From assembly GCA_003599485.1 (NCBI GenBank), contig QZKM01000048.1:10428-74427 (forward strand): a stretch of 64,000 bases of DNA. Reading direction: 5' to 3'. A model generated the notes under the pieces. That model was not told the DNA's origin. It was given only the letters and a program-made list of their open reading frames with translations, and searched no databases. Source of the stretch: Gammaproteobacteria bacterium. Its GTDB lineage: Bacteria > Pseudomonadota > Gammaproteobacteria > SURF-13. Of the stretch, positions 2,943 to 42,020 are shown piece by piece (the first letter of the stretch is position 1; each line of letters begins with the position of its first letter). A program made the translations under genes and the position numbers.

Positions 2943-3812
2943 GTGACTGATTACACCCTGCGCTCAGCTGATTTGTCGGTGAAGATTTCCACCAAAGGGG
3001 CGGAGTTGCAGTCGCTCAAAATGGCCGATGGCCTGGAACTCTTGTGGCAGGCCGACCCCAAGGTGTGGGCGCGCCATGCGCCGCACCTGTTTCCCATCGT
3101 GGGCCGCTTGAAAAACGACACGCTGCGCCACAACGGAAAAACCTATAACATGACGCCGCACGGTTTCGCACGCGACCTAGAGTTTACCTGCACGCAACAT
3201 TCCGATCAGGCGTGCACCATGCAGATCAAGGACTCCACCCAAACGCGTGAACGTTATCCCTTCACTTTTGAACTCAACATCACCCATGCGCTGGAAGGCA
3301 GCACGCTCATCATTACTTACGCATTGCGCAATCCGGCAATCACAGAATTGCTCGCCAGTGTCGGCACCCACCCCGCGTTTAACTGGCCGCTCAAGCCCGG
3401 TGTTGAACGCGGCGCGCACAGCATGACCTTTGAGCGCGACGAGCCCGCGCCCATCCGCCGCGTCGCGGGCGGCTTGATCAAGGCGCAGAATTTTCCCACG
3501 CCGGTGAAAAACCGCGTATTGAATCTTGCGGATGAACTGTTCGTGGATGATGTCGTGATCTTCGACCAGTTAAACAGCCGCGCACTCACTTACAGCGCGC
3601 CGGGCGCGCCAAAGATTCGGGTCACATTTCCAGACTTCCCGCATCTCGGCATCTGGACCAAGCCCGGCGCAGGCTTTGTGTGCATCGAACCCTGGCAGGG
3701 CCACGCCAGCCCGGAAGATTTCGACGGCGAGTTCCGCGCCAAGCCGGGCGTGATCGCCACCGCTCCTGAATCCGAACGTGTGTGGCGCTATACCATTTCG
3801 GTTGAGAAATAA
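2943..3812 (+). CDS. aldose 1-epimerase family protein (YphB-like)
   Basis: 289 aa, GTG start preceded by AAGGAGAGAG RBS. Mutarotase-like motifs (HGFAR..., GTHPAFNWP). Confidence 0.7.
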   Translation: MTDYTLRSADLSVKISTKGAELQSLKMADGLELLWQADPKVWARHAPHLFPIVGRLKNDTLRHNGKTYNMTPHGFARDLEFTCTQHSDQACTMQIKDSTQTRERYPFTFELNITHALEGSTLIITYALRNPAITELLASVGTHPAFNWPLKPGVERGAHSMTFERDEPAPIRRVAGGLIKAQNFPTPVKNRVLNLADELFVDDVVIFDQLNSRALTYSAPGAPKIRVTFPDFPHLGIWTKPGAGFVCIEPWQGHASPEDFDGEFRAKPGVIATAPESERVWRYTISVEK

Positions 3813-5439: not shown

Positions 5440-6376
5440 CCTTGCGCAGCAGCTTTATCAAGTGAGTCATGTCGGCGGGTAGCGGCGCTGACCACTCCAT
5501 CCTCTCGCCCGTTGCTGGATGCGTAAGGGCGAGATGCGCGGCGTGCAGCGCCTGGCGCTTGAAACCGCGCAGCGCCTCGCGCAATTCCATGCTGCACGAC
5601 GGCGGCATACGCAGGCGTCCGCCGTAAACCGGGTCGCCCAGCACGGGGTGCCGGATGTGCGCCATGTGCACCCGTATCTGGTGCGTGCGCCCGGTTTCCA
5701 GCATGATCTTGACGAGGGTGTGGGCGCGGAAACGTTCCTGCACGCGGTAATGGGTGATCGCGCTCTTGCCCTGCCCGCTTTGCGTCACCGCCATGCGCGT
5801 GCGGCTGACGCGGTGCCTGCCCAGCGGCGCCTCGATACATCCGCCCGCGATGATCTCGCCGTTGATCAGGGCGGCGTACTCGCGCTGCACCGTGTGCGCC
5901 TGCAATTGTTTGACCAGTGACTTTTGCGCGCCGAGCGTGCGCGCCACCACCAGCAAACCGCTGGTGTCCTTATCCAGCCTGTGCACGATGCCAGCGCGCG
6001 GAATTTTGCGCAACTGCGGCGCGTAATATAGCAGCGCATTGAGCAACGTGCCCTCCGGGTTGCCCGCGCCGGGATGCGCCACCAGGCCCGGCGGCTTGTT
6101 GATGACGATCAATTCCGCATCTTCGTAGACGATATCGAGCGCGATGGACTGCGCGCGCCACTCGCCCTGCGCCTCGGCCAGCGCGTTTAATTCAATAAGC
6201 TCGCCGCCGCGCACCTTATCGCGCGGACGCCATGTTTTGCCGTCCACCGCCGCCCGGCCGCTGCGTATCCACTGCGCGAGGCGCGAGCGCGAGTAGGCCG
6301 GGAACAGCCGCGCCAGCGCCTGGTCTAAACGCAAACCCACCAACTCCGGCGGAACCTGCGCGGTTAAAGGCTGCAT
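5420..6376 (-). CDS. rluD: 23S rRNA pseudouridine(1911/1915/1917) synthase RluD
   Basis: S4 domain plus catalytic motif HRLDKDTSGLLVVA. Divergent from bamD as in E. coli. Confidence 0.9.
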   Translation of the reverse strand: MQPLTAQVPPELVGLRLDQALARLFPAYSRSRLAQWIRSGRAAVDGKTWRPRDKVRGGELIELNALAEAQGEWRAQSIALDIVYEDAELIVINKPPGLVAHPGAGNPEGTLLNALLYYAPQLRKIPRAGIVHRLDKDTSGLLVVARTLGAQKSLVKQLQAHTVQREYAALINGEIIAGGCIEAPLGRHRVSRTRMAVTQSGQGKSAITHYRVQERFRAHTLVKIMLETGRTHQIRVHMAHIRHPVLGDPVYGGRLRMPPSCSMELREALRGFKRQALHAAHLALTHPATGERMEWSAPLPADMTHLIKLLRKDVREHA

Positions 6377-7247: not shown

Positions 7248-8411
7248 TTACCCAAGGTAAATCCGCTTCCATGCATATCCCCAAGGAATACGCTCTTGCT
7301 CCAACCGCACGCGCGGCCCCCAGCGATGATTGCACAAGTCCCGATACAGTCCTTGTTCCACCACAGTAAGCAAGGGCAGTTCAGCACCGACGACGGGCTT
7401 GTCCTCCTGCCCCCATAAACCTTTGTGATCCAATAGTGTTGACTCATCCATGAGTAGCGATTGAGTATGCGGCAAGTGGTGGCGCAGACGATTCAAGATG
7501 GCGAAACCGTGGGTGTCCAAGTCACCCCAGTAGTAGCACGGTAGCTGCTTGAGCCAGGGGATTTCGCCAAACAGGTCCACTGCATAACCAAGCCGCATGA
7601 ATACCGCAGCTTCCGGGACATCTCCGAAGGCAAGCCCGGTTTGCAGGTTTTCAACGATGAAGACACCGCGCAACGGCAAAACCAAGCGCGCGATCTCTTC
7701 CACCGGCGCGGTGATATCTCCCAATCCCCCCGTTATTCGACGCACGTCTGCATGCAGCAGACGAAGACGCATGAGCACGGGTTCGCGACGAATCCCGGTC
7801 GCCTTATGGAAGTCCGCACCATCACCACTATCGCCGCGAATAATAGACAACAGCCCGGCAACTAGGGATTTGCGGGCAGACAACCATTTGGTGTCGACGC
7901 CCGCCACCGGGAGCTGACGGACATACAGACCGGAATTGGGATGCGTTTCCAGCCATTCCAGCATTGCGAACAGGCGATGAAAATCGCCGTCCGGGTAGTC
8001 GGCCAACACATCGAAATATCCGGGCAAGGTTCCGGCAAGACGGGGCCAACGATCCGCCATCAAGGCATGGCGCCGTTCGGCCCTTTGCCACCGATCCGTT
8101 TCCCCTAACCATTCGGCTACTTGTGCCGGGTTATGAAGCAACGCCCGCTCCGGCAGGCTTTGCGTGCCGAGGTTCGGCCAGCGCCGCTCAACCCACACCA
8201 CTTCGCCTTCGCCCCGCCATTCGTGCCAACGCGCTTGCCACGCCTGCACCGCAGGAAGTTGCTCACGGGCCTGCTGTTCGCTCGGCATCCCAAGCGGGAT
8301 CGACAACGGCCAGGACCCGTCACCTTCGAGCCACCGCCGGTGATTGGCGCGGTAGCGTTGCTGCAAACGTTGTTTGACCCCATCGGGGTCAATTAGAAAC
8401 GACTTCGCCAC
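7248..8411 (-). CDS. jetD: Wadjet JetD (DUF3322/DUF2220, Toprim-like nuclease subunit)
   Basis: 387 aa. Toprim-like acidic motifs IVENL and YYWGDLDTHGFAIL. Overlaps the jetC stop. Confidence 0.85.
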   Translation of the reverse strand: MAKSFLIDPDGVKQRLQQRYRANHRRWLEGDGSWPLSIPLGMPSEQQAREQLPAVQAWQARWHEWRGEGEVVWVERRWPNLGTQSLPERALLHNPAQVAEWLGETDRWQRAERRHALMADRWPRLAGTLPGYFDVLADYPDGDFHRLFAMLEWLETHPNSGLYVRQLPVAGVDTKWLSARKSLVAGLLSIIRGDSGDGADFHKATGIRREPVLMRLRLLHADVRRITGGLGDITAPVEEIARLVLPLRGVFIVENLQTGLAFGDVPEAAVFMRLGYAVDLFGEIPWLKQLPCYYWGDLDTHGFAILNRLRHHLPHTQSLLMDESTLLDHKGLWGQEDKPVVGAELPLLTVVEQGLYRDLCNHRWGPRVRLEQERIPWGYAWKRIYLG

Positions 8412-11400
8412 GCATTCTTTCCGGTAGGTTCAGGCGCCGTCTCTGTCGGTCGTATTCGATCTGTAGCGTGGCGGAGCGCTTGCGGTCGCTGATGTCGACA
8501 AAACACGCACCGCCGATGAATGGCTCCAGGGTCATCACGGACTTCAGCGGTGTGGCAACGATCATCTGGAAACCGAAGTTGGTGAAAATTTTCATCGCCA
8601 GTTCGGTGAACTCGTTGTCTGCCTTGCCGAAGGCTTCATCCAGCACGACCGGCGCATACAGCGGCAACCCGCTGTCGCTGCCACCCAACTGGTAGCGCAG
8701 TGCGGCCGCGAGGCAGGTGGTGGCGAGTTTTTCGCGCTGGCCGCCGGACTTTCCCGCACCCGTGCGGTAAATTTCCACCTCCTGGCCGGCCTTGTCGTAT
8801 TCGCGTCCCATGAACTCCACGTGCTGGCGCACATCGAGGACCAGTTCCCGCCAGCGCTGATGCTCGCTTTCCGCCGAACCCAGCCTGTTCACCAGTTCGC
8901 GCAGGATACCAAAACGCGCCTCCGCACCCTCCGCGTCTGTAAGCCATGCGTTGTCCAGCACCTGTTTTACCTGTTCGCGAAATACCCTGACCTCCGGCAG
9001 ATAGCGGTCGTTGACGACAATCTCCAGGTGCGTGCCGTGACCGAACTCTGCCTGGGATAGACTCTCGTTCACTAGGTCCATGCGCTCACGTATCTCCTTG
9101 CGGGCCTTGGCAAGGTGGGTATTGAGCGCCGCCAGGTTCTCCGTACTCTGCTCCTTGAGCATGTCGAAAAAACGCTGCTCGTGCTTCGGCAGCCCATCGT
9201 GCTCCAGCCGCTCCAGCAGGACCATGAAATCCGGCGCCGAGGCCAAGGTCTCGTCCAGATCGCCGGCGTGTTCTCTCCATTCTCCGAGAAAACGGCTGAA
9301 GCATTTCTCGATCACCTGCTTCAAACTGCCCTGCTCGGTTTGCAGGCCTTCGATTTCCTTGCCAATTCCCCGCTCCACCGCGGTTCGTTGGCTTTCCAGA
9401 TTCTTGAGGGTGACCGGCTTGTCAATCGCCTCGAAGCGCGCCTTAAGCGCCTGCTGTTGATAATCAGTGAGCACGGCGGACTGCAGTTGCAGCCGCAACT
9501 CATCCAGTTCGTGACCATACTGATCGATTTGCTTTTTAACAACTATGCGTTCGGCACGCATGGCATTCAAGGCATCTTCAGCTTCCTTGAGCTTTGTCCG
9601 CTGTTGCATGATACGCTCGCCCAATTCCTTCAAAACACGGTTTCCGTCACTGAACTCGGCCAGCATCTTGTCTAGCGCATGAATACGATCCAGCATGCTG
9701 GCTACGTCGATCTCCTGCCATTGCAGATTGGTCAGAGTCTGGCAGGCCATGAGCCGCTCTTCCCGTTTCTCGCGGTCGGCCTCCAGTTGTTCTAGCTCTC
9801 GTCTGACCCGGCCGATCTCATCGGCCAATTGCTGCGCCCGCTCTTGATAAAGTCGCCGCTTTTCGCGGTTGTCGAAACCCAAAACCCACCCATGCGGGTC
9901 ATCGATGGGTCGCCGGTCGTCTTTCTCGTGCCGGGACCTGCCATGACGTACTTGACCTTCGCGCGTGACGGCCCGTTCGGTCTGGCGAAAATCCCTCATG
10001 TTGTCGACACAGGCGTAATCGAAACGGCGCCTGAACTCTGCGTCGAGCCAAGGCCGATAGGCGTTGTCCTTGAACAACAGCTTGTTGACCAGCGACCAAC
10101 TTTGCACCGGTTGCGTTGTGGATGTAATCGTGTCGGCCGCAACCCGGTGGTAAACCAAGCGTTGATTCAGGCGGGTCTCGTTAACGTAACTGGAGACGCC
10201 CGCGTAATGGCGCTCCTCGACGAGGAGCGAGAGCGCGAACCCTCGCAACACCCGCTCCACCGCGCCCTGCCACTCGGCGGCTTCCTTCCTGACCTCAATC
10301 AGTTCGCCGGCAAACGGCAAATCGCTTTCTGGCAAGCCGAGGGCGGTAGTCAGTTGCCGGCGCAGGTCCAGCATGTGGGCCGGAATATTGGAGGGCTGGC
10401 GCTGCATGGCCTCGACTTCCCGGCGCGTCTCGGAAAAACTCTTCTCCGCCTCGCGCTGGCGGACGTTCAGCGCATCGCGCTGCTCATCGGCGCGCCGGTT
10501 TGCCTCTCTGCGGCCCTCCAATATTCCCCGCGCCTCGGCGGCGAGCTCTGCAAACCCCTGTGGTGTATCCGGAAGCGAGCGGCCGAGCGTCTTACAGGCC
10601 GTTTCCGCTTGCCCGCGTTTGGCCATCCGGTCGTCCCGTTGCTGCTCGGCGGATTTCCTGTCCCGTTCCAGCTCCTGGATGCGCACGCCGCCTTGCTCCC
10701 GATGCTCCGCTTCCAGCAGGGCAAGCTGTGTCTTGTTATTGTCCAGCATCTCCTGCTGCCGGCGCTCCTCCCCCTCCAGCCCCTGATCCTGAGTCCGCAG
10801 GCGCTCGATTTCCTCGTCCAGCAGCTTCACCTTGCAACGGTCGCGGTAGGCATCGACACCGGCCCGCAACTCCTCCAGCCGGACCAGTTGCTCGCTATTC
10901 GATAGGAATTTTCGATGGTCGTCCCGCGCCGGACGCAGGGTATTCACCTGCCTGCGGGCCGTCACGACGGCTTGGTGGGCCGCGTCCAGTTCGGCAAATT
11001 CCTTCACCATGCGCTCAGTGACCTCGAAGGTGGGCGGCCGGTCGAGCATGTAGTCGCGAAGAAAGCTGTTAAGGTCACCGAGGTTCTTGGCCGACTGCGT
11101 CTTGTGCAGGAGCTTGAGCGCCATCTCCGACTCGATACCGAGCAGGCGGCGAAAGTGTTCGCCGTAAGCGCTGAACGTTTCGAAGTGGCGCACGTCCGAC
11201 AATTTGTGCTTGAGGTTACGCAGGTCCAAATCGAACTCCTTGAGTTCCGTCGCGATGTTGAAGGAACGCTCCGAAACCATGAAATGGTGCCGCACATCCG
11301 CAGCGCGGCTGGCGCTGCCGCGCAACCAGAGAATCTGCACAAGGCTCGCGCTCTGGCCAGCAAGGTTGGCGTACTCGACCGCCAGCGCCGACCAGGTAGT

Positions 11401-11730
11401 GCCTGTCCGCAGGTATTGCGAAGCGATCTCGCCGGAATCGTTGTCCGTTTGATCCGCCCAAGCACCGCGTATATAGGATACCCAGTGCCGATCATGACGC
11501 CCCTTCTCGCCCTCTCGCGCCGCGGCGTTGAACACCAACCATTGAGGCGGCGCGAGCAACGCGGACAGGGCATCGAGCACCGTGGATTTCCCGGAGCCCG
11601 AGCGCCCCACAAACAGGAAGCCTTCTTCGGTGATGGGAATATCGTGCAAACCGGAGAAGGTTCCCCAGTTGAATACCTGCAGGCGGCGCATCCGATATTG
11701 CTGCGCCGGCCACAGTCCCTGCATCAGCAT
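8389..11730 (-). CDS. jetC: Wadjet JetC (MksB-like SMC-family ATPase)
   Basis: About 1110 aa. N-terminal Walker A GRSGSGKST, very long E/R/Q/L-rich coiled coil, C-terminal Walker B VVLDEAFGKAD. Probable start is the ATG at 11730, immediately after the jetB stop; the track ORF extends to 11811. Confidence 0.85.
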   Translation of the reverse strand: MLMQGLWPAQQYRMRRLQVFNWGTFSGLHDIPITEEGFLFVGRSGSGKSTVLDALSALLAPPQWLVFNAAAREGEKGRHDRHWVSYIRGAWADQTDNDSGEIASQYLRTGTTWSALAVEYANLAGQSASLVQILWLRGSASRAADVRHHFMVSERSFNIATELKEFDLDLRNLKHKLSDVRHFETFSAYGEHFRRLLGIESEMALKLLHKTQSAKNLGDLNSFLRDYMLDRPPTFEVTERMVKEFAELDAAHQAVVTARRQVNTLRPARDDHRKFLSNSEQLVRLEELRAGVDAYRDRCKVKLLDEEIERLRTQDQGLEGEERRQQEMLDNNKTQLALLEAEHREQGGVRIQELERDRKSAEQQRDDRMAKRGQAETACKTLGRSLPDTPQGFAELAAEARGILEGRREANRRADEQRDALNVRQREAEKSFSETRREVEAMQRQPSNIPAHMLDLRRQLTTALGLPESDLPFAGELIEVRKEAAEWQGAVERVLRGFALSLLVEERHYAGVSSYVNETRLNQRLVYHRVAADTITSTTQPVQSWSLVNKLLFKDNAYRPWLDAEFRRRFDYACVDNMRDFRQTERAVTREGQVRHGRSRHEKDDRRPIDDPHGWVLGFDNREKRRLYQERAQQLADEIGRVRRELEQLEADREKREERLMACQTLTNLQWQEIDVASMLDRIHALDKMLAEFSDGNRVLKELGERIMQQRTKLKEAEDALNAMRAERIVVKKQIDQYGHELDELRLQLQSAVLTDYQQQALKARFEAIDKPVTLKNLESQRTAVERGIGKEIEGLQTEQGSLKQVIEKCFSRFLGEWREHAGDLDETLASAPDFMVLLERLEHDGLPKHEQRFFDMLKEQSTENLAALNTHLAKARKEIRERMDLVNESLSQAEFGHGTHLEIVVNDRYLPEVRVFREQVKQVLDNAWLTDAEGAEARFGILRELVNRLGSAESEHQRWRELVLDVRQHVEFMGREYDKAGQEVEIYRTGAGKSGGQREKLATTCLAAALRYQLGGSDSGLPLYAPVVLDEAFGKADNEFTELAMKIFTNFGFQMIVATPLKSVMTLEPFIGGACFVDISDRKRSATLQIEYDRQRRRLNLPERMRGEVVSN

Positions 11731-11731
11731 C

Positions 11732-12400
11732 TCATCCTGTCGCATCAGCGGGATCCTCGGGTGACTCGTCGCGGAGCGCGGCGTACTGCCGGCTGAGCGC
11801 AGCAATCTCATCGGCGCTGAACAGCAGTTTCAGAGTGGGGGATATCTCATAACGATCTTCACTGGCTCGGATCGGGCTGATGATGCTGTGGTCCTTCACT
11901 TTCTCGATGGCCGCCCGGATGCGTTTTTCGAACCCGGCCCGATCGGCATTCTCGCGCGGTTCATACAGCTTCATCTGCTCCACCATCTCCGAACCCGAAA
12001 CCACGGCCCGCTCCCCTCGGGCCGCCGCCTCCGTGAGTAATTGACGGAGATAGAGAAGCAGAACCGACTGGATAAAGGTCAACGGCGCGCGCCGCAATAA
12101 GATCGGCGTATCCAGCTCGCCCGTATCCGCCTGGCGCGTGAATGCCACTTCAAGATCGTCGTCCAGCACCAATTCCAGGAACAGTTCGGCGAGGCGCGCG
12201 CGGATCATTGCTTCGTGCCGCCGTAACGCCGGCCACAGCTTGCCATGACGCTTGCTGTCGAGCGACGGACCCGCAAGCAGTTGCACCAAGACACGGCGCG
12301 CCTCTTCCGGGAGCTGGCCAGTGTCGCCAGGATAAAGCCCTGGGTCCTGCAACCCCTCGCTCACGCTATTCGGGATCTCGGTCCTTTCATCGTGATTCAT
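11732..12400 (-). CDS. jetB: Wadjet JetB (MksE-like, DUF4194-type)
   Basis: 222-aa acidic protein between the kleisin-like and SMC-like genes. Overlaps jetA by 14 nt. Confidence 0.75.
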   Translation of the reverse strand: MNHDERTEIPNSVSEGLQDPGLYPGDTGQLPEEARRVLVQLLAGPSLDSKRHGKLWPALRRHEAMIRARLAELFLELVLDDDLEVAFTRQADTGELDTPILLRRAPLTFIQSVLLLYLRQLLTEAAARGERAVVSGSEMVEQMKLYEPRENADRAGFEKRIRAAIEKVKDHSIISPIRASEDRYEISPTLKLLFSADEIAALSRQYAALRDESPEDPADATG

Positions 12401-13847
12401 CGAGGCATCCTTTCACGAAATAGACACATGGAATATGAGCCCGGCGCTCCACGCCGTCGAGCCCCGTCCAATGCACCGTTTCCTTGCGCTGGGCCAGCAC
12501 GCCGTGGCGCGAACCCAGTGCCATGTAACCGACGACGCTGCCAAGGCCCTGCTCGGCGGGATGCGCGTCCAGTATCTCCGCGATGGATACTTGATCGCGT
12601 TCTTCGAGCAGGGCCTGCACGTGTCCTTTCAGGCCCCGAAAATCGATTTCCGAGTGTGCAACCAATTCACTCACCGCCTCCAGAGATATTTCCGCCGCTT
12701 CGGCGAGCGGGATACCGGCATCCACCCGGTCGAGGCTCGGATCGTGCGGGCGAAACTGGGACAGCGAACCAAGCTTGCTACTGGTGAGATGCAATGTGTG
12801 CCCGATTTCGTCCGTGGGTTTGACGCGGTCCTTGATTTCGACAGCGAGACGCTGGGCCTCCTTGAGCAACTGGTTCAGGCGGCGCTGCTCCATGTATTCA
12901 CGGCTCTGCACGAACTGCTTCAGGCTACGCGCAAAATATTGCAGGGCATCATGCACGTCGCCACCGCGTTCCAGCAGCAGTTTGGTCATGCCGGACAGGA
13001 ACCGCCGCTCCTGGCGATCCAGCGTTCGCGCGAATTCCCTCGACAACAATCGCTCCAAGGCCTCCTCCAACTCCATGCTCTGCTGGGGGTCGGTGAGCAA
13101 GCGCCAGAAGGCCTTGAAGGTACGCCCGGCGTCGCTCGCGGCGATCACGTCCACTCCGGTAAACAGTTCTTCCAGCACTTCACCCCGGGCGCCTTCGCTT
13201 TCCACGATCCGCTCGCGCAACTGGCGATTGAGCTGGTGGAACTGGTCGCGCACCTGCCGAAAGTCGTTGGCCAACTCATCCGCAAGTGCAACGATTTCCC
13301 GCGCGCGCTCCAGAGCCCTGTCCGCCGGCAAGGCTTCGACTCGCCCCGCGCGAACGGCATCGATCTCGGCATCGAGGCGCGCCCGTTCCCGGATCAGTTT
13401 CTCGACGCGCGACTCTGGATCGGTTTCGGTCTGCTCGGCCAACTGTACCAATTGCTGAATCACCAAGGACAGTCGGCTTTCCGTGGCAACCGTGCGCTTC
13501 TGGCCCAGACTCTCGACAAAGCGAATGGCCTGGATAGCCGAGGCACTGAGTTCGTAAACCTCCTCGCTCGCCCCGGCTTGGTACGAACGTTCGAGATACC
13601 CGTCCGCCAACCACTGGCTCAGGTAAGCCTGCGCGGATTGCGGTAGCTCCCAGTCTTCCGCGCGCAGCGAATCCAAATCCCGTCCGATGCGCTCGCTCAG
13701 AATCGAGCTGGGGAGACGACGCTCTCCCTCGAACAAGTGGCTCCGCAAGAGACCAATGACAACCGGCGCGTTATCCGCCGCCAACAGTCGCCACGCCGTT
13801 TTGTTGCGTAGACGTTGGTTGCTTGCGACTTGATGAGCTGACTTCAT
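12387..13847 (-). CDS. jetA: Wadjet JetA (MksF-like kleisin, DUF3375-type)
   Basis: 486 aa, first gene of the four-gene co-directional operon with overlapping ends. Size and position match JetA. Confidence 0.75.
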   Translation of the reverse strand: MKSAHQVASNQRLRNKTAWRLLAADNAPVVIGLLRSHLFEGERRLPSSILSERIGRDLDSLRAEDWELPQSAQAYLSQWLADGYLERSYQAGASEEVYELSASAIQAIRFVESLGQKRTVATESRLSLVIQQLVQLAEQTETDPESRVEKLIRERARLDAEIDAVRAGRVEALPADRALERAREIVALADELANDFRQVRDQFHQLNRQLRERIVESEGARGEVLEELFTGVDVIAASDAGRTFKAFWRLLTDPQQSMELEEALERLLSREFARTLDRQERRFLSGMTKLLLERGGDVHDALQYFARSLKQFVQSREYMEQRRLNQLLKEAQRLAVEIKDRVKPTDEIGHTLHLTSSKLGSLSQFRPHDPSLDRVDAGIPLAEAAEISLEAVSELVAHSEIDFRGLKGHVQALLEERDQVSIAEILDAHPAEQGLGSVVGYMALGSRHGVLAQRKETVHWTGLDGVERRAHIPCVYFVKGCLDESR

Positions 13848-14502: not shown

Positions 14503-16128
14503 TTAGCTATCTCTCCCGCCCCACGTAATAGGATAACGCCGATCGCGGCCAAAGGCACGCGGGGTGATGCGCACACCGGGTGCGGCCTGGCGGCGTTTGT
14601 ATTCGTTGCGGTCCACCATGCGGATCACGCGCCGCACGGTTTGTTCGTCGAAGCCCGCGGCGATAATGTCCTCCGGCCGTTTGTCTTGTTCGACATACAG
14701 CTTGAGTATGGGATCGAGCACGGAATAAGGCGGCAGCGCATCGGTGTCTTTTTGGCCGGGCGCGAGTTCCGCCGTGGGCGCGCGCTCAAACACGCGCCGT
14801 GGAATCACCGGCTGGATGCGATTGCGGTATTCCGCGAGGCGGTACACGAGCAGCTTGGGCACGTCCTTGAGCGGCGCGAAACCGCCCGCCATGTCGCCGT
14901 ACAGCGTGGCGTAGCCCACCGACATCTCGCTCTTGTTGCCGGTGGAGAGCACGATGTTGCGTTTTTTATTGGCGATGGCCATGAGTACCACACCGCGGCA
15001 GCGCGCCTGGATATTTTCTTCCGTGACATCGGCGGGCAGTCCGGCGAATTCCTGTTTCAGACTGTCCAAAAATGCCTGAAAAGAAGGCTCAATGGAGATC
15101 AGGCTGTGTTTCACACCGAGGGCCTCGGCCACTGCCTTGCCGTCCTCAATACTGATGGGGGCGGTGTAGCGCGAGGGCATGAGCACCGCCTCGACACGTT
15201 CGGCGCCCAGGGCGTCCACGGCGACGGCCAGGGTCAAGGCGGAATCTATACCGCCGGAAACGCCGATCACCACGCCGTTGAAACCGTTTTTGTTCACATA
15301 ATCGCGCACGCCCAGCACCAGTGCTTGATACGCGCTTTGCTCCTCGCTTAACGGCGCGCGGCGCTCGCCCGGCTGCACAACGACGTTACCGTTCACCTGC
15401 AAATCCAATGGGAACAGGCCTTCGGCAAAGGCCGGTGCGCGCAGCATGAGTTGGCCCTCAGCGTCCACCGCGAGCGATTCACCGTCGAACACCAGTTCGT
15501 CCTGCCCGCCCACGAGATTGACGTAGACGATGGGCATCTCGCCCTGTTGCGCACGTTGCCTGAGCAACGCCACGCGTTCTTCGCCCTTGGCAAGGTGAAA
15601 CGGCGAGGCGTTGATGTTGATGAGCAGCCGTGCGCCGGCCTCGCGCGCCTGCCGTATCGGCCCCGGCATCCAGATGTCCTCGCAAATGCTGAGCGCCGTG
15701 GGCACACCCTCGATATCCACCACGCAGGCCCGATCGCCCGCGACAAAATAGCGCTTTTCGTCAAACACGCCGTAATTCGGCAGATGCTGTTTGAAGTAAC
15801 GCGCAAGGATGACGTCATCGCACAACAACGCGGCGGCATTATAGAGACGATGGTCTTCTTGATGCGGATAGCCGAACACTGCGGCGATGCCATTTATCCC
15901 GCGCTTCAACTCCTCGATGCCTTCCCGCACCTGCGCGTGCAGGTCAGGGCGCAGCAGCAAGTCCTCCGGCGGATAGCCGGTGAGCGCGAGTTCGGGAAAC
16001 ACAGCCACGTCGGCGCGCAGTTCGTCGCGCGCTTGATGCGCCGCGGCGATGATCTTGCACACATTACCGCGCACGTCGCCCACGCATAGATTGAGCTGGG
16101 CGGCGGCGATGCGTAAACGCGTGCTCAT
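14503..16128 (-). CDS. nadE: glutamine-dependent NAD+ synthetase
   Basis: 541 aa: N-terminal CN-hydrolase domain plus C-terminal NAD synthetase with P-loop SGGIDSAL. Start overlaps the sucD stop. Confidence 0.9.
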
Positions 16129-17021
16129 CGCGAGGCGGATTTTTTCGCGCGCTGCATCAGCGCGGCCATGGCCTCCCCCATCCCGGCGGGCGAGCGCGCG
16201 ACCACCACGCCCGCCGCCTCCAGCGCGGCGATTTTGTGCGCCGCCGTACCCGCGCCGCCGGAGATGATCGCGCCCGCGTGCCCCATGCGTTTGCCGGGCG
16301 GCGCAGTTTGTCCCGCGATGTAGGCGGCCACGGGCTTGCGCACGTGCGTCTTGATATAGCCGGCGGCGGCCTCTTCCGCCGTGCCGCCGATCTCACCGAC
16401 CAGAATGATGCCCTCGGTCTCTGGGTCTTGCTCGAACAACTCCAGGCAGTCAATGAAATTCATGCCCTGGATCGGGTCGCCGCCGATGCCGACGCAGGTG
16501 CTTTGCCCCAGGCCGTTTTGCGTGGTCTGGTGCACCGCCTCATAAGTCAGCGTGCCGGAGCGCGACACAATGCCAATGCGGCCGGGCTTGTGGATCGCGC
16601 CCGGCATAATGCCGATCTTGCATTCACCGGGCGTGATGACGCCGGGACAGTTCGGGCCGATGAGCCTCACGGCGGGATAATTTTTCAGCGCGGCCTTGAT
16701 GTTCAACATGTCAAGCACCGGTATGCCTTCGGTGATGCATACGATGACCTTGATACCCGCGTCCGCCGCTTCCAGTATCGCGTCCATCGCAAACGGCGCG
16801 GGCACGTAAATCATGCTCGCATCCGCACCGGTCTCTTGCACCGCCGCGCGCACGGTATTGAACACCGGCAGGCCGAGATGCATCTCCCCGTCCTTGCCCG
16901 GCGTCACACCGCCGACCATGTTCGTACCATAGGCGATGGCCTGCTCGGAGTGAAACGTGCCCTGTTTGCCTGTGAAGCCTTGGCAAATGACACGGGTGTT
17001 TTTATTGACGAGGATGCTCAT
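16125..17021 (-). CDS. sucD: succinyl-CoA synthetase alpha subunit
   Basis: CoA-binding and phospho-His region ([10 protein letters not shown]). The ATG overlaps the stop of the upstream methyltransferase (ATGA). Confidence 0.95.
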
Positions 17022-18589
17022 GATCGCTTGCTGACCTTGTATCTTGCACGCTCTTCACGAAGAGTAAATTCCAGTTGTGTTTCCCTCAATGGGGCCGCTA
17101 AACCGGCCTCACGCAGAGCGCGCTCCGACAGCGGCAGCCGTTCCAGTGCACGCGGCTCAACCTTCACTGCACCTCCACCATACGACTTTCCGACCAACAC
17201 AATATTGGCAACCGTATCCGGATGATTGAGCAATGCCCATAGGCGCTCAACAAAATTCGGCGCATCCGACAACGGGTAGACACACAAAAAGCCGGTAAGC
17301 GGAACGACTCCTGCACGGTTACGAATAAAGCGGGCATTGCGCCGTCCAAGATAGGCGAACAGGAATGGTGGAATAGCCCGCGTCTCCATCTTATACCACG
17401 GCTTGCGCGTCTTGATGAGCGGCTTATCAGGTAACCCAAGCCGCTCCCCACGCTTTAGATAGCGTCGCACGGACCAAGGGAACCGAGAGGGTAAGTTCCC
17501 ATTGGGGGAAAATAAAAAGGTAGGCCGTTGCTGAGCTTCAAGCCTGCGGAGATCGGCGTGAGTTAATTCGTCACCTGCAACATCTCTTGTCCGGCCAATT
17601 GCGGGGACAAGGAATTCTTTTTGCAGGCCAAGCGCCGTCACTCGTTCAGCAGTCAAAAAGAAATACTCATTAGCGCCAGTCGCAATCCCTCGCATCACTC
17701 TTGCGAAATCGGCGAGCACCGCAGGATGAGTCATAACTTGCGGTGGCCGGGATAATCCAGTAGCTATCCCTTCACAAACAAGCCGCCGCTGGACTGAGAG
17801 TGTGCCAGCCTCGACGGTCTTGAACCCGGATAGCACCCAAGCCCGCAACGCCAAGTTGTCCGGCTGGGTAACACGCGCCCAATGAAACTCCGCTCCGGGT
17901 GGAGCATTCTCAATCATGATGATGACAGGATTCGTATCGACACCGGGGAAAGGTGTAGCCATGTGATCAAACGTGATGACCGCATCGAGCCGGTAGTGCC
18001 TGGTAATCCATTGCCACAAGGTCCCGGCAAAAACCCCTTCGCAGGTGTCGGCAGGCACAATGAATGCCAGCCGACCACCCTGTTCAAGAAGCTGAAGGGC
18101 ACGCAGCAAGAAATGGATGTGGTAGCCCGCACGCGCATCGATAGCCACGCCAGTAAGCCGCATGCTAAATATCTTAAGCCTGGATTTAACATCTGCGGAC
18201 AAGCGGTGATGGCGGATATACGGTGGGTTTGCAACGATGGCCTTCAGCTTCGTGCGAGGCGGATCAAGCACAAAGTCGCGGACCTCGACGCCTGAAAGAT
18301 CGCGTGATTTGAGGCCTGATGTTTTTGCCTTATCCAAAATCGATTTATCAACTTCCGCGCCCTGCAAGCGCACACGAACATTTGCCAACTCCGCTACAGC
18401 CAGTGCAGCCCGGAAAAACGCCCCCATCCCCACCGCTGGATCGAAAATAGTACGATGCCCTCCGGCTATCGGGTAAGCAGCCATCGCCTGCGCTACCCAA
18501 GCGGGTGTCCAAAATTGGCCACTTTGCCGTAATTTCTCGCGCTCAGGCCCAGATGCCGGTAGTTTCTGTACAGCTTGCTCCGCCATCAT
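17018..18589 (-). CDS. type II N6-adenine DNA methyltransferase (gamma class, Eco57I/TaqI-like)
   Basis: Motif [12 protein letters not shown], motif [10 protein letters not shown], motif IV NPPY ([11 protein letters not shown]). C-terminal target-recognition region. Lower GC than flanks. Confidence 0.85.
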
Positions 18590-19542
18590 TTACGTTCCTT
18601 TGCGATACTGTTGAGCCTACTCAAAACATCATGGCTAAGCTCCAAACTTCCGCCCTCGAACCTTACGTAGGGGAGAATGTGGCCATTCTTGTCAGTAATG
18701 CAAGCCGGTAAAAGCCTGGGCTCCTGCTTCGCGGCTCCGAGTGGATAGGCATAGTGATAATAAAACTTGTAGATCGACTTGCGTGTGGTAGCCCCACCCG
18801 GAGCTTGAAATACCTGCTCTGTCGGCAGAATCAGTTTGCTACGAATCAATCGCTCAGCCTCATCGAATGCCAGACCGAAGGCAAGATCGTAAAACACATG
18901 CCAGACGTGAATCTTTATGCCAGTAGACTGTTGCCATTTGCGCAAAGGTTGCCGGTCTTCATCCTTAATAATCACAGTCGGCACTACCGCAGTCTTCTTT
19001 AGGCCCGGTTTGCCATTTAAGCGCCGCTGCGGACTCAACTCAGCGCCAAAGCCCGGCATTTGTGCGGCACGCCACAAGCTATTTTCACACTCAACTGCAA
19101 TAACACTTTCGGCGAGGATGGTCCGCATGCACCGGTCGGACTCCGCGGTGAATGGCAGCTCCGATATGCCGCCTATTTCCTTAACAAGGCGCTCAACAAC
19201 TGGTTGACTCGATTTCCGGAAAATCAGCAAATCCGGACGTTTGATCTTACCAAGCCCAGCTTTGTCCAGACGTTCAAAATAGAGTTCAAAGGCTCGCACA
19301 TCATCGTCAGGAGCCGTCCCGCTGGGCCCATAGGGCAATGCAAAGAATTCTCCAGCATTACTGATGGCCTCAATGATGCGATGCTCGCTCCATACGCCTT
19401 GTGACCATCTCATCAAAAAATCGCTGCCACGCAGGCGTCGAGGATTAAGCAGAAACTCGTGCCACCCGATATGACCCAGTGCCGACAATTCGAACGCAAT
19501 ATCCTCACTTGAGACACTAAGAATTTTCTCGAATGAGTGCAT
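18586..19542 (-). CDS. putative type II restriction endonuclease (partner of adjacent methyltransferase; PstI/BsuBI-like size)
   Basis: About 318 aa from the ATG at 19542 (RBS GGGGA), 15 nt after the sucC stop. Its stop overlaps the MTase start (ATGA). About 50% GC. No family recognised by eye. Confidence 0.5.
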   Translation of the reverse strand: MHSFEKILSVSSEDIAFELSALGHIGWHEFLLNPRRLRGSDFLMRWSQGVWSEHRIIEAISNAGEFFALPYGPSGTAPDDDVRAFELYFERLDKAGLGKIKRPDLLIFRKSSQPVVERLVKEIGGISELPFTAESDRCMRTILAESVIAVECENSLWRAAQMPGFGAELSPQRRLNGKPGLKKTAVVPTVIIKDEDRQPLRKWQQSTGIKIHVWHVFYDLAFGLAFDEAERLIRSKLILPTEQVFQAPGGATTRKSIYKFYYHYAYPLGAAKQEPRLLPACITDKNGHILPYVRFEGGSLELSHDVLSRLNSIAKERK

Positions 19543-19556
19543 TTGAAATCCCCGGC

Positions 19557-20711
19557 TCAAGCGTGACCTGCCGCGGCGACTGCCTTTACAGCCGCATCGG
19601 TAAGATCGTTCGCAGTGATGATTTTGAGTTTGCTGGCGCGTAATAATTCGCACGCCTCCGGCGCACGGTTGCCTTCGAGGCGCACCACCACCGGCAGTTT
19701 GATGCCGACTTCGGATACCGCCTTGATGATGCCTTCGGCGATCAAATCACAGCGCACGATGCCGCCGAAGATGTTGACCAAAATCGCCTTCACTTTTTTA
19801 TCGGACAAAATCAGCTTGAAGGCTTCGGCCACTTTTTCCGCCGTGGTGCCGCCGCCGACGTCGAGAAAGTTGGCCGGTTCGCCGCCGTGCAGTTTGATCA
19901 AGTCCATGGTCGCCATGGCGAGTCCGGCGCCGTTCACCATGCAGGCGATGTTGCCGGAGAGGGTGATGTAGTTGAGACCGAACTGGCGCGCGGCGGCCTC
20001 GCGTTCGTCTTCCTGGGTCGCGTCGCGCAGCGCGGCGAGGTCGGGGTGGCGGTACAACGCGTTGTCATCCAGTGCGATCTTGGCGTCCAGCGCAATCAGT
20101 TCGCCGCCGCGGGTGATAATCAACGGGTTGACCTCGATCAGGCTGGCGTCCTGGTCCACAAACACACGGTACAGCGCGCGCGCAAGCTGGGTGAAGGCGG
20201 CGATCTGTTTATCGGCCAGACCCAGCGCAAAGGCGAGTTCGCGACACTGGTAAGGCTGCAAGCCCGCCAGCGGGTCCGCGTGCAGCGTTTGTAGTTGATG
20301 CGGGTGAGTTTCGATCTCCACCCCGCCGCTGCCGGACGCCAGGACCTGCACCCGCTCACGCGCCCGGTCCACGGTGAGCGCAAGATACAGCTCGCGCGCG
20401 ATTTCGCTCGGGCGGTCCACCAGCACCGTGGAGACAGGGAGGCCCTGGGCGCCGGTTTGCGCGGTGACGAGACGCGAGCCGAGCAGCCTGCTCACGGCGG
20501 TTTCCAGTTCATCCAGACCGCGCACGCGCTGCACGCCGCCCGCCTTGCCACGCGCCCCCGCGTGCACCTGCGCTTTGACGACCCACTCTTCTCCGCCGAG
20601 GGCGCGCGCCGCATCCCGCGCCTGCTGCACGCTGCGCGCCACCACGCCCTGGGGCACGGGCACGCCGTATCCCTTTAATAGTTGCTTCGCCTGGAATTCG
20701 TGGAGGTTCAT
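19557..20711 (-). CDS. sucC: succinyl-CoA synthetase beta subunit
   Basis: ATP-grasp N-terminus MNLHEFQAKQLL...; full-length 384 aa. Confidence 0.95.
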   Translation of the reverse strand: MNLHEFQAKQLLKGYGVPVPQGVVARSVQQARDAARALGGEEWVVKAQVHAGARGKAGGVQRVRGLDELETAVSRLLGSRLVTAQTGAQGLPVSTVLVDRPSEIARELYLALTVDRARERVQVLASGSGGVEIETHPHQLQTLHADPLAGLQPYQCRELAFALGLADKQIAAFTQLARALYRVFVDQDASLIEVNPLIITRGGELIALDAKIALDDNALYRHPDLAALRDATQEDEREAAARQFGLNYITLSGNIACMVNGAGLAMATMDLIKLHGGEPANFLDVGGGTTAEKVAEAFKLILSDKKVKAILVNIFGGIVRCDLIAEGIIKAVSEVGIKLPVVVRLEGNRAPEACELLRASKLKIITANDLTDAAVKAVAAAGHA

Positions 20712-20808
20712 AAGGTTGCGGGCACATTATAGCAGGCCGTCAACGGCGTAGCCCCGCGGGCGCGGCAAATGGCGGAACTGAACGAAAATACGTTATGCTA
20801 GACGGGTT

Positions 20809-24036: not shown

Positions 24037-24972
24037 ATGAAAATACTGCTCGTTGACGATTCCTCCACCATCATCGCAGCGACGAGCAAGATGCTTGAAA
24101 AGATGGGGCATAGCGTGTCCACAGCCGAGAACGGTGAAGCGGGTGTGGCTGCCTACGAGCGCGAGCATCCTGATTTGATCCTTATGGACGTAACTATGCC
24201 TGTCATGGATGGGTACGCGGCCGCGCAACATATCCGTTCCCAACACCCGGAGGACTGGGTTCCGATCATCTTCCTGAGCGGACGGGAAGACGAACAGCAG
24301 CTCCAGCGTGGAATCCAGGCTGGAGGCGATGATTACTTGATAAAGCCGGCCAGCTACGTGGTGCTGCACGCAAAGATTCACGCCATGCAGCGTATTGATG
24401 CGATGCGCCGCCGTCTGATTCAGTTGTCCGCGGAATTGGCCGCCGCAAACCGGGCGCTGGAACGCCTGTCAAGGCAGGATGCCCTGACTGATCTCGCCAA
24501 CCGGCGATATTTCGACACTTACCTTGCTGACGAGATTTTACGCGCGCAGCGCACCAAGAAGACGCTCGCTCTGATCCTGTGCGACGTTGACTATTTCAAG
24601 CCATACAACGATCACTACGGCCATCAGGCCGGCGATCAGTGTCTCAGACAGGTTGCCGCCGCAATACGGTACTGCTGCCGGCATCCGGCAGATATGGCTG
24701 CACGCTATGGTGGCGAGGAATTTGCGCTTATCCTTCCGGAAACGGAGCTGAGCGGTGGAGTTCAGGTTGCCGAAGATATCAGAAATGCGGTTGCACAGTT
24801 ACGGATTGCCCACGAGCATTCGAAAGTGACGTCGTATGTCAGCATCAGCGCCGGCGTTGCCGTCTATCTGCCAGGAACGGTTATCACCGCAAATCAGCTG
24901 GTCGCAGCGGCCGACGAAGCCCTTTATCAGGCGAAAGGTTCAGGTCGTAATCGCGTTGTTGCCCTAGGATAA
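24037..24972 (+). CDS. response regulator with GGDEF diguanylate cyclase domain
   Basis: REC (DDSS...D...K), then GGEEF active site and RYGGEEF; I-site-like RxxD. Lower GC than neighbours. Confidence 0.9.
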   Translation: MKILLVDDSSTIIAATSKMLEKMGHSVSTAENGEAGVAAYEREHPDLILMDVTMPVMDGYAAAQHIRSQHPEDWVPIIFLSGREDEQQLQRGIQAGGDDYLIKPASYVVLHAKIHAMQRIDAMRRRLIQLSAELAAANRALERLSRQDALTDLANRRYFDTYLADEILRAQRTKKTLALILCDVDYFKPYNDHYGHQAGDQCLRQVAAAIRYCCRHPADMAARYGGEEFALILPETELSGGVQVAEDIRNAVAQLRIAHEHSKVTSYVSISAGVAVYLPGTVITANQLVAAADEALYQAKGSGRNRVVALG

Positions 24973-41361: not shown

Positions 41362-41890
41362 TCAATCCACATATCCAAGCACGTCCTCATTACCGCCCGC
41401 CCAATCGGGCGGATAAATGCCTCGCTCGACCAAATGGTGAAATGTTGAATACGGCCAGTCTATCACGCGTTTGACCAAACCGTGTTTTACCGGGTTGATA
41501 TGCACATAATCCATATGGGCACGGAAATCCGCCTCGTCACGAATCAGGTGTTCCCAATAGCGCCGCTGCCAAATACCCCGCTCCCCGCGGGCGAGACGCA
41601 CCTGTGATCGTCGTTCGGTGGGCGGCAAGGCCTTGGAAAAGTCCACTTTAATCAACCGCCATCGGGTCGCAAAATCGGCATCGTTTGAGGGCAGTTCGAT
41701 CACGCAATGCAGATGATCGGGCAATACCACCCATCCAGGATGGCGAAGGGATGACGTTGCCGCACCGACTTCACCGTCTCCCGCAGCCTGTCGTAGTGAC
41801 GAGTCAGCAGGTCGTTGCCGTGCCGTTGCAGCAGGTTGACGGTGAAGAAAAAATGCCGCCTGGATGCCAGGCGCGACGGTAATCGGGCAT
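41362..41890 (-). pseudogene. REP-associated tyrosine transposase (RAYT / TnpA_REP, IS200-like HUH), disrupted by two -1 frameshifts
   Basis: The N-terminus [14 protein letters not shown], then [15 protein letters not shown]...[13 protein letters not shown], then [15 protein letters not shown]...RRYWEH...NPVKHG lie in three different frames. HUH (HLH) and catalytic Tyr (YWEH) are present. The first shift is in an A6/T6 homopolymer (41848..41853), the second near 41733..41736. Confidence 0.7.
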
Positions 41891-41915
41891 GGCGGTAGTA
41901 TCGGCATGTTCGACA

Positions 41916-41950
41916 TCCGGCGCAATGCCCTTCGGTTATTGCGCCCTACC
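41916..41950. repeat. REP element (copy c), inverted relative to copy b
   Basis: ggcgcaatgcccttcggttattgcgcc is the reverse complement of the copy b core. Confidence 0.85.
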
Positions 41951-41952
41951 GG

Positions 41953-42020
41953 GCTGGCTGAAGGCTGAACCAGCATGCGTAGGGTGAAATGCCCTTTGGT
42001 TACTGCGCCCTACGCTTGCT
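41953..42020. repeat. 68-bp direct repeat (copy 2) = MFS gene 3' end + REP copy d
   Basis: ggctggctgaaggctgaaccagcatgcgtagggtgaaatgccctttggttactgcgccctacgcttgct matches 40716..40783 nearly perfectly. Confidence 0.85.

Follow-up and report, generated by a model that had tools for sequence, protein, structure and literature searches.

A predicted AccI-family restriction-modification gene pair embedded between sucC and sucD in uncultured Gammaproteobacteria

Type II restriction-modification (R-M) systems such as PaeR7I and EcoRI resist their own loss by post-segregational killing, in which under-methylated chromosomes are cleaved (PMC2685091). Such systems have also been described as insertions in operon-like gene clusters, where a Type II pair lies co-directionally in a cluster that is uninterrupted in relatives, with no linked integrase or transposase. 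We analysed a locus of this kind in 64,000 nucleotides of DNA from Gammaproteobacteria bacterium (assembly GCA_003599485.1, contig QZKM01000048.1, positions 10,428 to 74,427), a stretch that is referred to throughout as the window. Here, genes for a predicted restriction endonuclease (R) and a predicted DNA methyltransferase (M) lie between sucC and sucD, the genes for the two subunits of succinate--CoA ligase. A described system of the same endonuclease family is AccI from Acinetobacter calcoaceticus (GT^MKAC), which is likewise a two-gene unit of an endonuclease and an N6-adenine methyltransferase. The AccI prototype was described beside transposon-like sequence (Brassard et al. 1995, cited in PMC2853133), and not in a housekeeping operon.

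The sucC/sucD case is a further, well-resolved example of R-M insertion into an operon-like cluster. It shares the co-directional Type II pair and the uninterrupted relatives with the known cases, and no integrase or transposase was found near the pair. It differs from them in being precise to the open reading frame (ORF) between the coupled subunit genes of one enzyme, in spanning hosts with only 63-73% SucC identity, and in showing same-site replacement, decay of R and an empty nested lineage. It also has no long target duplication, unlike an R-M insertion with direct repeats of ~100 bp. A literature search retrieved the general phenomenon and no report of an R-M insertion at sucC/sucD; the proteins are already annotated in GenBank by family name. 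The interpretation that we favour, with a probability of roughly three in four, is that the window carries an intact Type IIP R-M pair that would be a promoterless, ORF-precise insert at the sucC/sucD boundary, co-expressed with its host genes and maintained as an old polymorphism that is exchanged at the same site.

The genes are ordered sucC, R, M, sucD and nadE on the minus strand, with the following features.

20734..20726, minus strand: candidate promoter, an extended -10-like element TGCTATAAT, 14 nt upstream of the sucC ATG (a reading of the sequence only)
20711..19557, minus strand: sucC, succinate--CoA ligase beta subunit, 384 aa, intact; NCBIfam NF001913 at 532 bits (cutoff 370); Pfam ATP-grasp_2 and Ligase_CoA
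19556..19543, minus strand: spacer between sucC and R, gccGGGGAtttcaa, 14 nt, holding the Shine-Dalgarno sequence of R
19542..18586, minus strand: R, 318 aa, predicted AccI-family Type II restriction endonuclease
18589..17018, minus strand: M, 523 aa, predicted gamma-class N6-adenine DNA methyltransferase
17021..16125, minus strand: sucD, succinate--CoA ligase alpha subunit, 298 aa; NCBIfam NF004230 at 468.6 bits (cutoff 336)
16128..14503, minus strand: nadE, NAD+ synthetase, 541 aa, where the tightly coupled chain ends

Both subunits of the ADP-forming ligase are thus full length and score above the NCBIfam equivalog cutoffs, and the nadE homolog of a related locus (L001) matches CN_hydrolase and NAD_synthase. 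A preliminary description of this DNA had placed a co-directional, tightly coupled R-M pair between sucC and sucD, and this is borne out by the gene identities, the junctions and the empty sites in comparator genomes. The TGA of R and the ATG of M share an ATGA overlap (18589..18586), and the TGA of M overlaps the ATG of sucD in the same manner within TCATGA; direct reading of the sequence confirmed both overlaps as first described. The stop codon of sucD also overlaps the nadE start as ATGA (16128..16125), and the same overlap is present in loci L001 and L093. The distance from the sucC TGA to the ATG of R, initially given as 15 nt, is 14 nt, and the ribosome-binding site noted ahead of that ATG is a Shine-Dalgarno sequence of moderate strength (anti-Shine-Dalgarno energy -5.7 kcal/mol). 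A longer, GTG-initiated reading of R (start 19653, 355 aa, overlapping sucC) was disfavoured by the start MHSFE..., which is conserved among homologs, and by the Shine-Dalgarno sequence.

R scored 33.7 bits with the Pfam family RE_AccI (PF09545), above the gathering score of 22, and this was its sole Pfam match at E<=0.01. All of the 40 aligned homologs of R matched the same family (best E-value 5e-18), and PADLOC called R as REase_II. An identical protein in NCBI nr, RJQ45604.1 from a metagenome-assembled genome (MAG) contig of 77,664 bp, is named AccI family restriction endonuclease (Gammaproteobacteria bacterium). The family match and this name support the initial proposal that the ORF of about 318 codons is a restriction endonuclease; the guess that it was PstI/BsuBI-like was not sustained, and that family was rejected because the Pfam scan returned only RE_AccI. 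Residues P103-D104 and E151-C-E153 are invariant among the 40 homologs, and R of the window retains every invariant residue. An AlphaFold2 model built on these homologs had a mean predicted local distance difference test score (pLDDT) of 84.4 and a predicted template modelling score (pTM) of 0.81, while a sequence search against the PDB gave nothing meaningful. By homology, R is predicted to be an AccI-family Type II restriction endonuclease, possibly of the PD-(D/E)XK type. The homolog search of R gave no phage match and one distant match on a haloarchaeal megaplasmid, and carriage of R on phages or plasmids was rejected on these grounds. A distant haloarchaeal gene of the 'AccI family' aligns to residues 35-226 of R with 23.5% identity.

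The methyltransferase carries motif X (FWTP, residues 26-29), motif I of the FxGxG type (DPAVGMGAF, 50-58) and motif IV (NPPY, 121-124), followed by an M_Eco57I_C domain at residues 284-485. Pfam matches were to N6_Mtase, Eco57I and M_Eco57I_C, and the PADLOC model MTase_II PDLC03267 matched over the full length with 181 bits. The order X-I-IV with a C-terminal target-recognition domain is shared with M.TaqI and M.Eco57I. However, M is a stand-alone protein, unlike the nuclease-fused Eco57I or MmeI, and it resembles M.TaqI, its top sequence hit in the PDB, only weakly (E=2e-4) and only in the catalytic domain. Judged by motif order and family matches, M is a gamma-class N6-adenine DNA methyltransferase, as had been read from its NPPY motif at the outset. 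The locus thus combines an endonuclease homolog with an adjoining methyltransferase that has motifs I and IV, as expected by homology of a Type II R-M system.

We surveyed empty sites by a SucD scan with one genome per species, which gave 80 loci among the matches listed; no relative closer than ~80% SucD identity was present among these matches. sucC lies directly upstream of sucD in all 80, and neither R nor M occurs in any of them. The two genes overlap as ATGA in 22 loci and by 1 nt in 19; the gap between them has a median of -1 nt and never exceeds 156 nt. The expectation that sucC and sucD are normally adjacent therefore held in every listed locus, and since all of these reference loci are uninterrupted, the 2.5-kb interruption in the window is derived. 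The same adjacency, together with homologs of R at E-values down to 3e-197 and of M at E=0, indicates that the two ORFs did not arise by chance. The flanks of the insert showed neither a target duplication (direct repeats of ~100 bp) nor terminal inverted repeats; only short, chance-level repeats were found, and none of these lay at the boundaries.

The contexts of related cassettes were gathered by locus look-up of the individual closest R and M homologs, and at least 16 independent assemblies, drawn from ENA, Logan, JGI and NCBI, had the arrangement. The same insertion site is occupied in at least eight diverged lineages, with intact pairs in at least seven; in L098, only M is present. Besides the window, the layout sucC-R-M-sucD occurs in the following loci, given with the identity of their R to that of the window.

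L096: 93%
L093/L094: 89% (NCBI GCA_043740145.1)
L001-L008: 87%
L009/L010: 81%
L095/L097: 81%
L106/L107: 79%

The identity of R thus remains at 79-93% while that of the host SucC falls to 63% (71-73% between the window and L001 or L093, and 63-65% between the window and L009 or L095). The window and L001 have the common synteny pilR-pilS-sucC-R-M-sucD-nadE-glnB. Upstream neighbourhoods are pilR-pilS in the window, L001 and L093, aat-ppsA in L009, and macAB in L095 and L097. The ATGA overlap of the M stop and the sucD start was present in all five lineages in which it could be read, and the 14-nt spacing between sucC and R is kept in the window, L096, L001, L093 and L095. In L097, a HepT/MNT toxin-antitoxin pair (3061-3685) lies directly upstream of sucC, and M is shorter, at 481 aa.

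To relate the cassettes to their hosts, SucC and M trees were built by neighbour-joining with bootstrap. In the SucC tree, the window pairs with L098 (100%) and L001 with L093 (100%), and these four form group A (99%); group B consists of (L097,(L009,L017)), with support of 100% and 97%. In the M tree, L098 is instead paired with L097 at 100%. Along its whole length, the M gene of L098 has 77-83% nucleotide identity to group-B genes and 60-77% to the window, and a test for mosaicism along the gene revealed none, the sequence being group-B-like throughout. The conflict between the two trees indicates that L098, a group-A host, carries a group-B-type cassette at the same site. In this locus, sucC and M are separated by 168 nt (L098 4682-4849) that hold remnants of R in different frames, derived from its start (MHSFEH...), middle (LRGSDFLMR) and C-terminus (GGSLELN...KER), while M is intact and still overlaps sucD. 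From these remnants we read that R of L098 has been destroyed by an internal deletion with M kept, and that L098 represents an orphan methyltransferase caught soon after the loss of R. L098 thus resembles the orphan methyltransferases known from decayed R-M systems, whereas the pair in the window is intact. The site is empty in L017 ('Ca. Muproteobacteria'), which is one of the 80 reference loci and is nested among cassette-bearing hosts. The sucC-sucD spacer of L017 (~5892-6000) is 109 nt long and AT-rich, with a long imperfect hairpin, CACCGCAAAGACGCAAAGA ... TCTTTGCGTCCTTTGCGGTG, before the native Shine-Dalgarno sequence. It has no similarity to R or M, and the hairpin may be an insert resembling a repetitive extragenic palindrome (REP) or a miniature inverted-repeat transposable element (MITE), or a terminator or attenuator.

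These observations bear most directly on the alternative that survives best, namely a single ancient insertion with strictly vertical inheritance. The pair would then be an old resident that has become domesticated, at times lost precisely but never exchanged horizontally. In group A, cassettes and hosts have congruent trees, that of the cassettes being ((window,L096),(L001,L093)) with all nodes at 99-100%. Comparison of the window with L001 gave a synonymous divergence (dS) of 0.92 (R) and 1.23 (M), compared to 0.92-1.27 for the host genes sucC, sucD and nadE; between L001 and L093 it is slightly higher for the pair (R 0.22, M 0.29) than for host genes (0.14-0.15). This similarity in dS points to long co-divergence of the pair with its host in the window-L001-L093 subclade, and strict vertical descent would also account for the conserved junctions and for the finding that the clade of cassettes sharing at least 76% identity in R was seen only in this host group. 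It is contradicted by L098, which is sister to the window on sucC yet carries over its whole length an M that is sister to that of group-B L097, each at 100%. The empty site of L017, with its native-looking spacer, also speaks against it, as L017 lies between cassette-bearing L009 and L097. Among the cassettes of the sucCD clade, or next to them, the tree also places one from another site, holC|valS in L011, and the third-codon-position guanine-plus-cytosine content (GC3) of the pair has not been ameliorated. We therefore regard strictly vertical inheritance as unlikely. Under the favoured interpretation, the comparisons show an insert that is confined to uncultured Gammaproteobacteria related to 'Ca. 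Muproteobacteria' and is inherited vertically within subclades. Across subclades, one cassette has taken the place of another at this site, a swap for which homologous recombination through the conserved flanking genes sucC and sucD would be the simplest route. The cassette has decayed by deletion of R with retention of M, and it is absent from one nested lineage (L017).

A second alternative, which we consider distinctly improbable, is that the pair no longer restricts, in which case M would have been kept for epigenetic regulation or simply to bridge translation to sucD, and R would be inactive or serve another function. The persistence in L098 of an M without R that still overlaps sucD would be in keeping with such a role, as would the mild depletion of the AccI site. 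GTMKAC occurs 14 times in the 64-kb window, compared to 25.0 expected from a 4th-order Markov model and 55.4 from a zero-order model. However, R of the window is full length and keeps every residue that is invariant among its 40 homologs. Ratios of nonsynonymous to synonymous substitution (dN/dS) lay between 0.05 and 0.18 for R and between 0.07 and 0.16 for M, no higher than those of sucC (0.19-0.29), and both genes are under strong purifying selection. Inactivity of R is unlikely, because an inactive nuclease would not be so conserved. Site avoidance in the window singled out no recognition sequence for the pair, and other palindromes were more depleted than GTMKAC. Hexamers rarer than the 4th-order expectation included CTCGAG (1 compared to 21.8), AGATCT (0 compared to 11.7), CGATCG (11 compared to 36.4) and TGATCA (10 compared to 28.9). 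Such depletion may reflect further restriction systems, whether past or present, or a site for the embedded pair that differs from GTMKAC.

The base composition of the pair could suggest a recent, private acquisition by the window genome. The GC content of R is 0.508 (GC3 0.533) and that of M 0.552 (GC3 0.544), the lowest among all ORFs of at least 200 aa in the window, while the neighbouring genes have values of 0.643 (0.790) for sucC, 0.639 (0.813) for sucD and 0.619 (0.749) for nadE. The contrast noted at the start, of about 50% GC in the endonuclease region against a background of about 65%, is thus real, and a family GC3 below host GC3 across phyla would be compatible with fresh horizontal transfer. 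However, the closest other cassette (L096) is already at a dS of ~0.5 from the window, and L001, at a dS of ~1, has identical junctions in the same synteny. Since the same arrangement and junctions occur in at least eight diverged lineages, low GC is not evidence of recency, and taking it as a sign of recent arrival did not hold up; a recent private acquisition is very improbable, being refuted by these divergences and shared junctions. The deficit in GC3 of the pair relative to flanking genes is 0.13-0.28 in sucCD-embedded loci and 0.01-0.39 in other contexts, and across phyla the GC3 of the cassette family is consistently lower than that of its hosts. Low GC is a standing property of the cassette family. 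It had been anticipated that an old resident would be recognised by relatives carrying the pair here at host-like GC; relatives do carry the pair at this site, yet in none of them is its GC3 host-like. The only other ORFs of at least 200 aa with GC below 0.58 in the window are 41362-41976 (minus strand; 204 aa, no Pfam match, GC 0.57, GC3 0.56) and 24037-24972 (plus strand), a response-regulator/GGDEF diguanylate cyclase just after pilR (GC 0.56, GC3 0.62).

Finally, because the window comes from a metagenome-assembled genome, it is conceivable that foreign DNA was fused to a sucCD contig during assembly or binning. Such an artefact can be excluded, because at least 16 assemblies, which come from four sources and were made with several assemblers, show the same layout and junctions, and the R/M and M/sucD reading frames overlap at the junctions.

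We then considered how the embedded genes might be expressed. The sucC start has no Shine-Dalgarno sequence (anti-Shine-Dalgarno energy +0.9 kcal/mol), and L098 has TATAATG at the same place. The position of TGCTATAAT 14 nt before an ATG that lacks a Shine-Dalgarno sequence suggests a very short leader for the sucC transcript. A consensus scan for a sigma-70 -35/-10 pair found none on the minus strand or within the R-M pair, and a terminator scan of the coding strand within the pair gave one weak hairpin, no more than shuffled sequences give. Ahead of R, the spacer is similar to the one found natively between sucC and sucD in L017, which ends in cAGGGATTTTAA before the sucD ATG, and to its equivalent in L037, cAGGGATTTTTAAAG; owing to this resemblance, R seems to have taken over the ancestral ribosome-binding site of sucD. 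The anti-Shine-Dalgarno energy of sucD itself is -3.3 kcal/mol in the window and ranges from -0.9 to -3.3 in all six cassette-bearing loci. The median for the 80 listed empty-site loci is -6.8 kcal/mol, and 11 of the 12 closest empty-site relatives among the matches listed have values between -4.0 and -11.7. Given the weak Shine-Dalgarno sequence of sucD in cassette-bearing loci, sucD probably relies on reinitiation after M, its translation being coupled to that of the methyltransferase.

We therefore propose a model in which a single transcript, sucC-R-M-sucD-nadE, would start from the promoter upstream of sucC, so that the module would be expressed together with central metabolism. R would be translated from the former Shine-Dalgarno sequence and spacer of sucD, M would re-initiate at the R stop (ATGA), and sucD would re-initiate mainly at the M stop (ATGA). 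By analogy with classical systems, a pair of R and M without a controller is expected to resist loss through post-segregational killing. If translation of sucD, and perhaps of nadE, is tied to M, this dependence would add a second barrier to loss, a layer that lies outside the classical killing model. Reinitiation of sucD at the M stop would make clean loss of M costly, which fits the retention of M after the decay of R in L098. The idea that a module wired into this operon would be hard to lose thus stands in part: M was retained in L098, but R is mostly deleted there and the site in L017 is empty.

Several observations weigh against the favoured interpretation or its parts. R is shorter than AccI (318 aa compared to ~366), and its alignment to PF09545 is partial, with residues 39-112 corresponding to model positions 35-108 of 366, that is, 74 positions. 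The best PDB matches of the R model in Foldseek were PD-(D/E)XK nucleases (fusellovirus D212, archaeal Hjc and RecU), but none was significant (best E=0.029, none at E<=0.001), and for this reason the fold is consistent with, but not proven to be, PD-(D/E)XK. The empty-site relative L015 also has an ATGA overlap without a Shine-Dalgarno sequence before sucD (+0.1 kcal/mol), so that a weak Shine-Dalgarno sequence is not unique to cassette-bearing loci. The GC3 deficit persists in group A despite a dS of ~1, which would not be predicted if composition were ameliorated over long residence. Similarity between groups A and B in the junction-proximal 3' end of sucC and 5' end of sucD was not elevated in a manner that would mark recombination flanks; it is equally high against empty-site genomes and hence reflects domain conservation. 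In addition, the sucC tree has weak support at its deep nodes, and one insertion origin is indistinguishable from two.

Cassettes of the same family were found at other sites, and about six contexts were sampled. The closest lies in L011/L012, in the order pepA-holC-[R-M-orf160]-valS, with R 77-84% identical to the sucCD cassettes; the L011 cassette falls within or beside the sucCD cassette clade, and the clade as a whole has 100% support. The gene orf160 of L011 follows a 40-nt gap, has no Pfam match and has a cassette-like GC3 of 0.68. The window contains no pepA, holC or valS. A more distant pair (R 69%) is present in L099, in the order rpmE-DUF1385-[R-M]-prfA-sua5, where the junctions are overlaps of 1 nt and 4 nt and a gap of 11 nt. 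Both pairs (L011 5560-9157 and L099 3991-8700) are co-directional with their neighbours, with spacings around the pair from 1-4-nt overlaps to 11-21-nt gaps. A stand-alone R-M pair outside any operon occurs in Thermanaerothrix. In a further branch, a unit of an MNT-type nucleotidyltransferase, R and M is identical in L103 and L104 and in L105 (4643-7540), with different upstream flanks: uvrB-like and toxin-antitoxin genes in one case, CoA-transferases and an insertion sequence (IS) fragment in the other. In this branch, the nucleotidyltransferase seems to be part of the mobile unit. Embedding in operons therefore recurs in the cassette family but is not universal.

A bolder reading, which we offer tentatively, is that this cassette lineage is a specialised operon parasite. 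Promoterless and without mobility flanks, it would settle at coupled junctions (sucC|sucD, holC|valS and DUF1385|prfA), seize the downstream ribosome-binding site, make the translation of an essential gene dependent on M, and spread as an allele by homologous recombination. If true, this strategy would be a distinct mode of persistence and mobility for R-M systems, and would explain why M outlives R.

A further defence system is encoded close to the operon. A complete type I Wadjet anti-plasmid system lies ~240 nt downstream of glnB in the window, with the following genes.

12387-13847, minus strand: JetA
11732-12400, minus strand: JetB
8389-11811, minus strand: JetC
7248-8411, minus strand: JetD

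Since L001 and L093 have other genes after glnB (bamD-like and rluD-like), the Wadjet system appears to be a second defence insertion beside the same operon. No transfer RNA, transfer-messenger RNA or Rfam family was detected in the window at gathering thresholds.

Defence genes are usually studied in variable islands, whereas here a nuclease and its antidote lie inside an operon of central metabolism and are probably translated in a chain with an essential enzyme. Intact pairs, same-site replacement, deletion of R, an empty site and sister cassettes together provide a comparative series for the entrenchment, exchange and decay of a selfish module. The locus also shows that atypical composition is an unreliable sign of recent transfer, because GC3 is 0.13-0.28 below that of the host even where dS has reached ~1. 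The layout offers a simple system in which to ask whether translational coupling holds an essential gene hostage to a mobile element.

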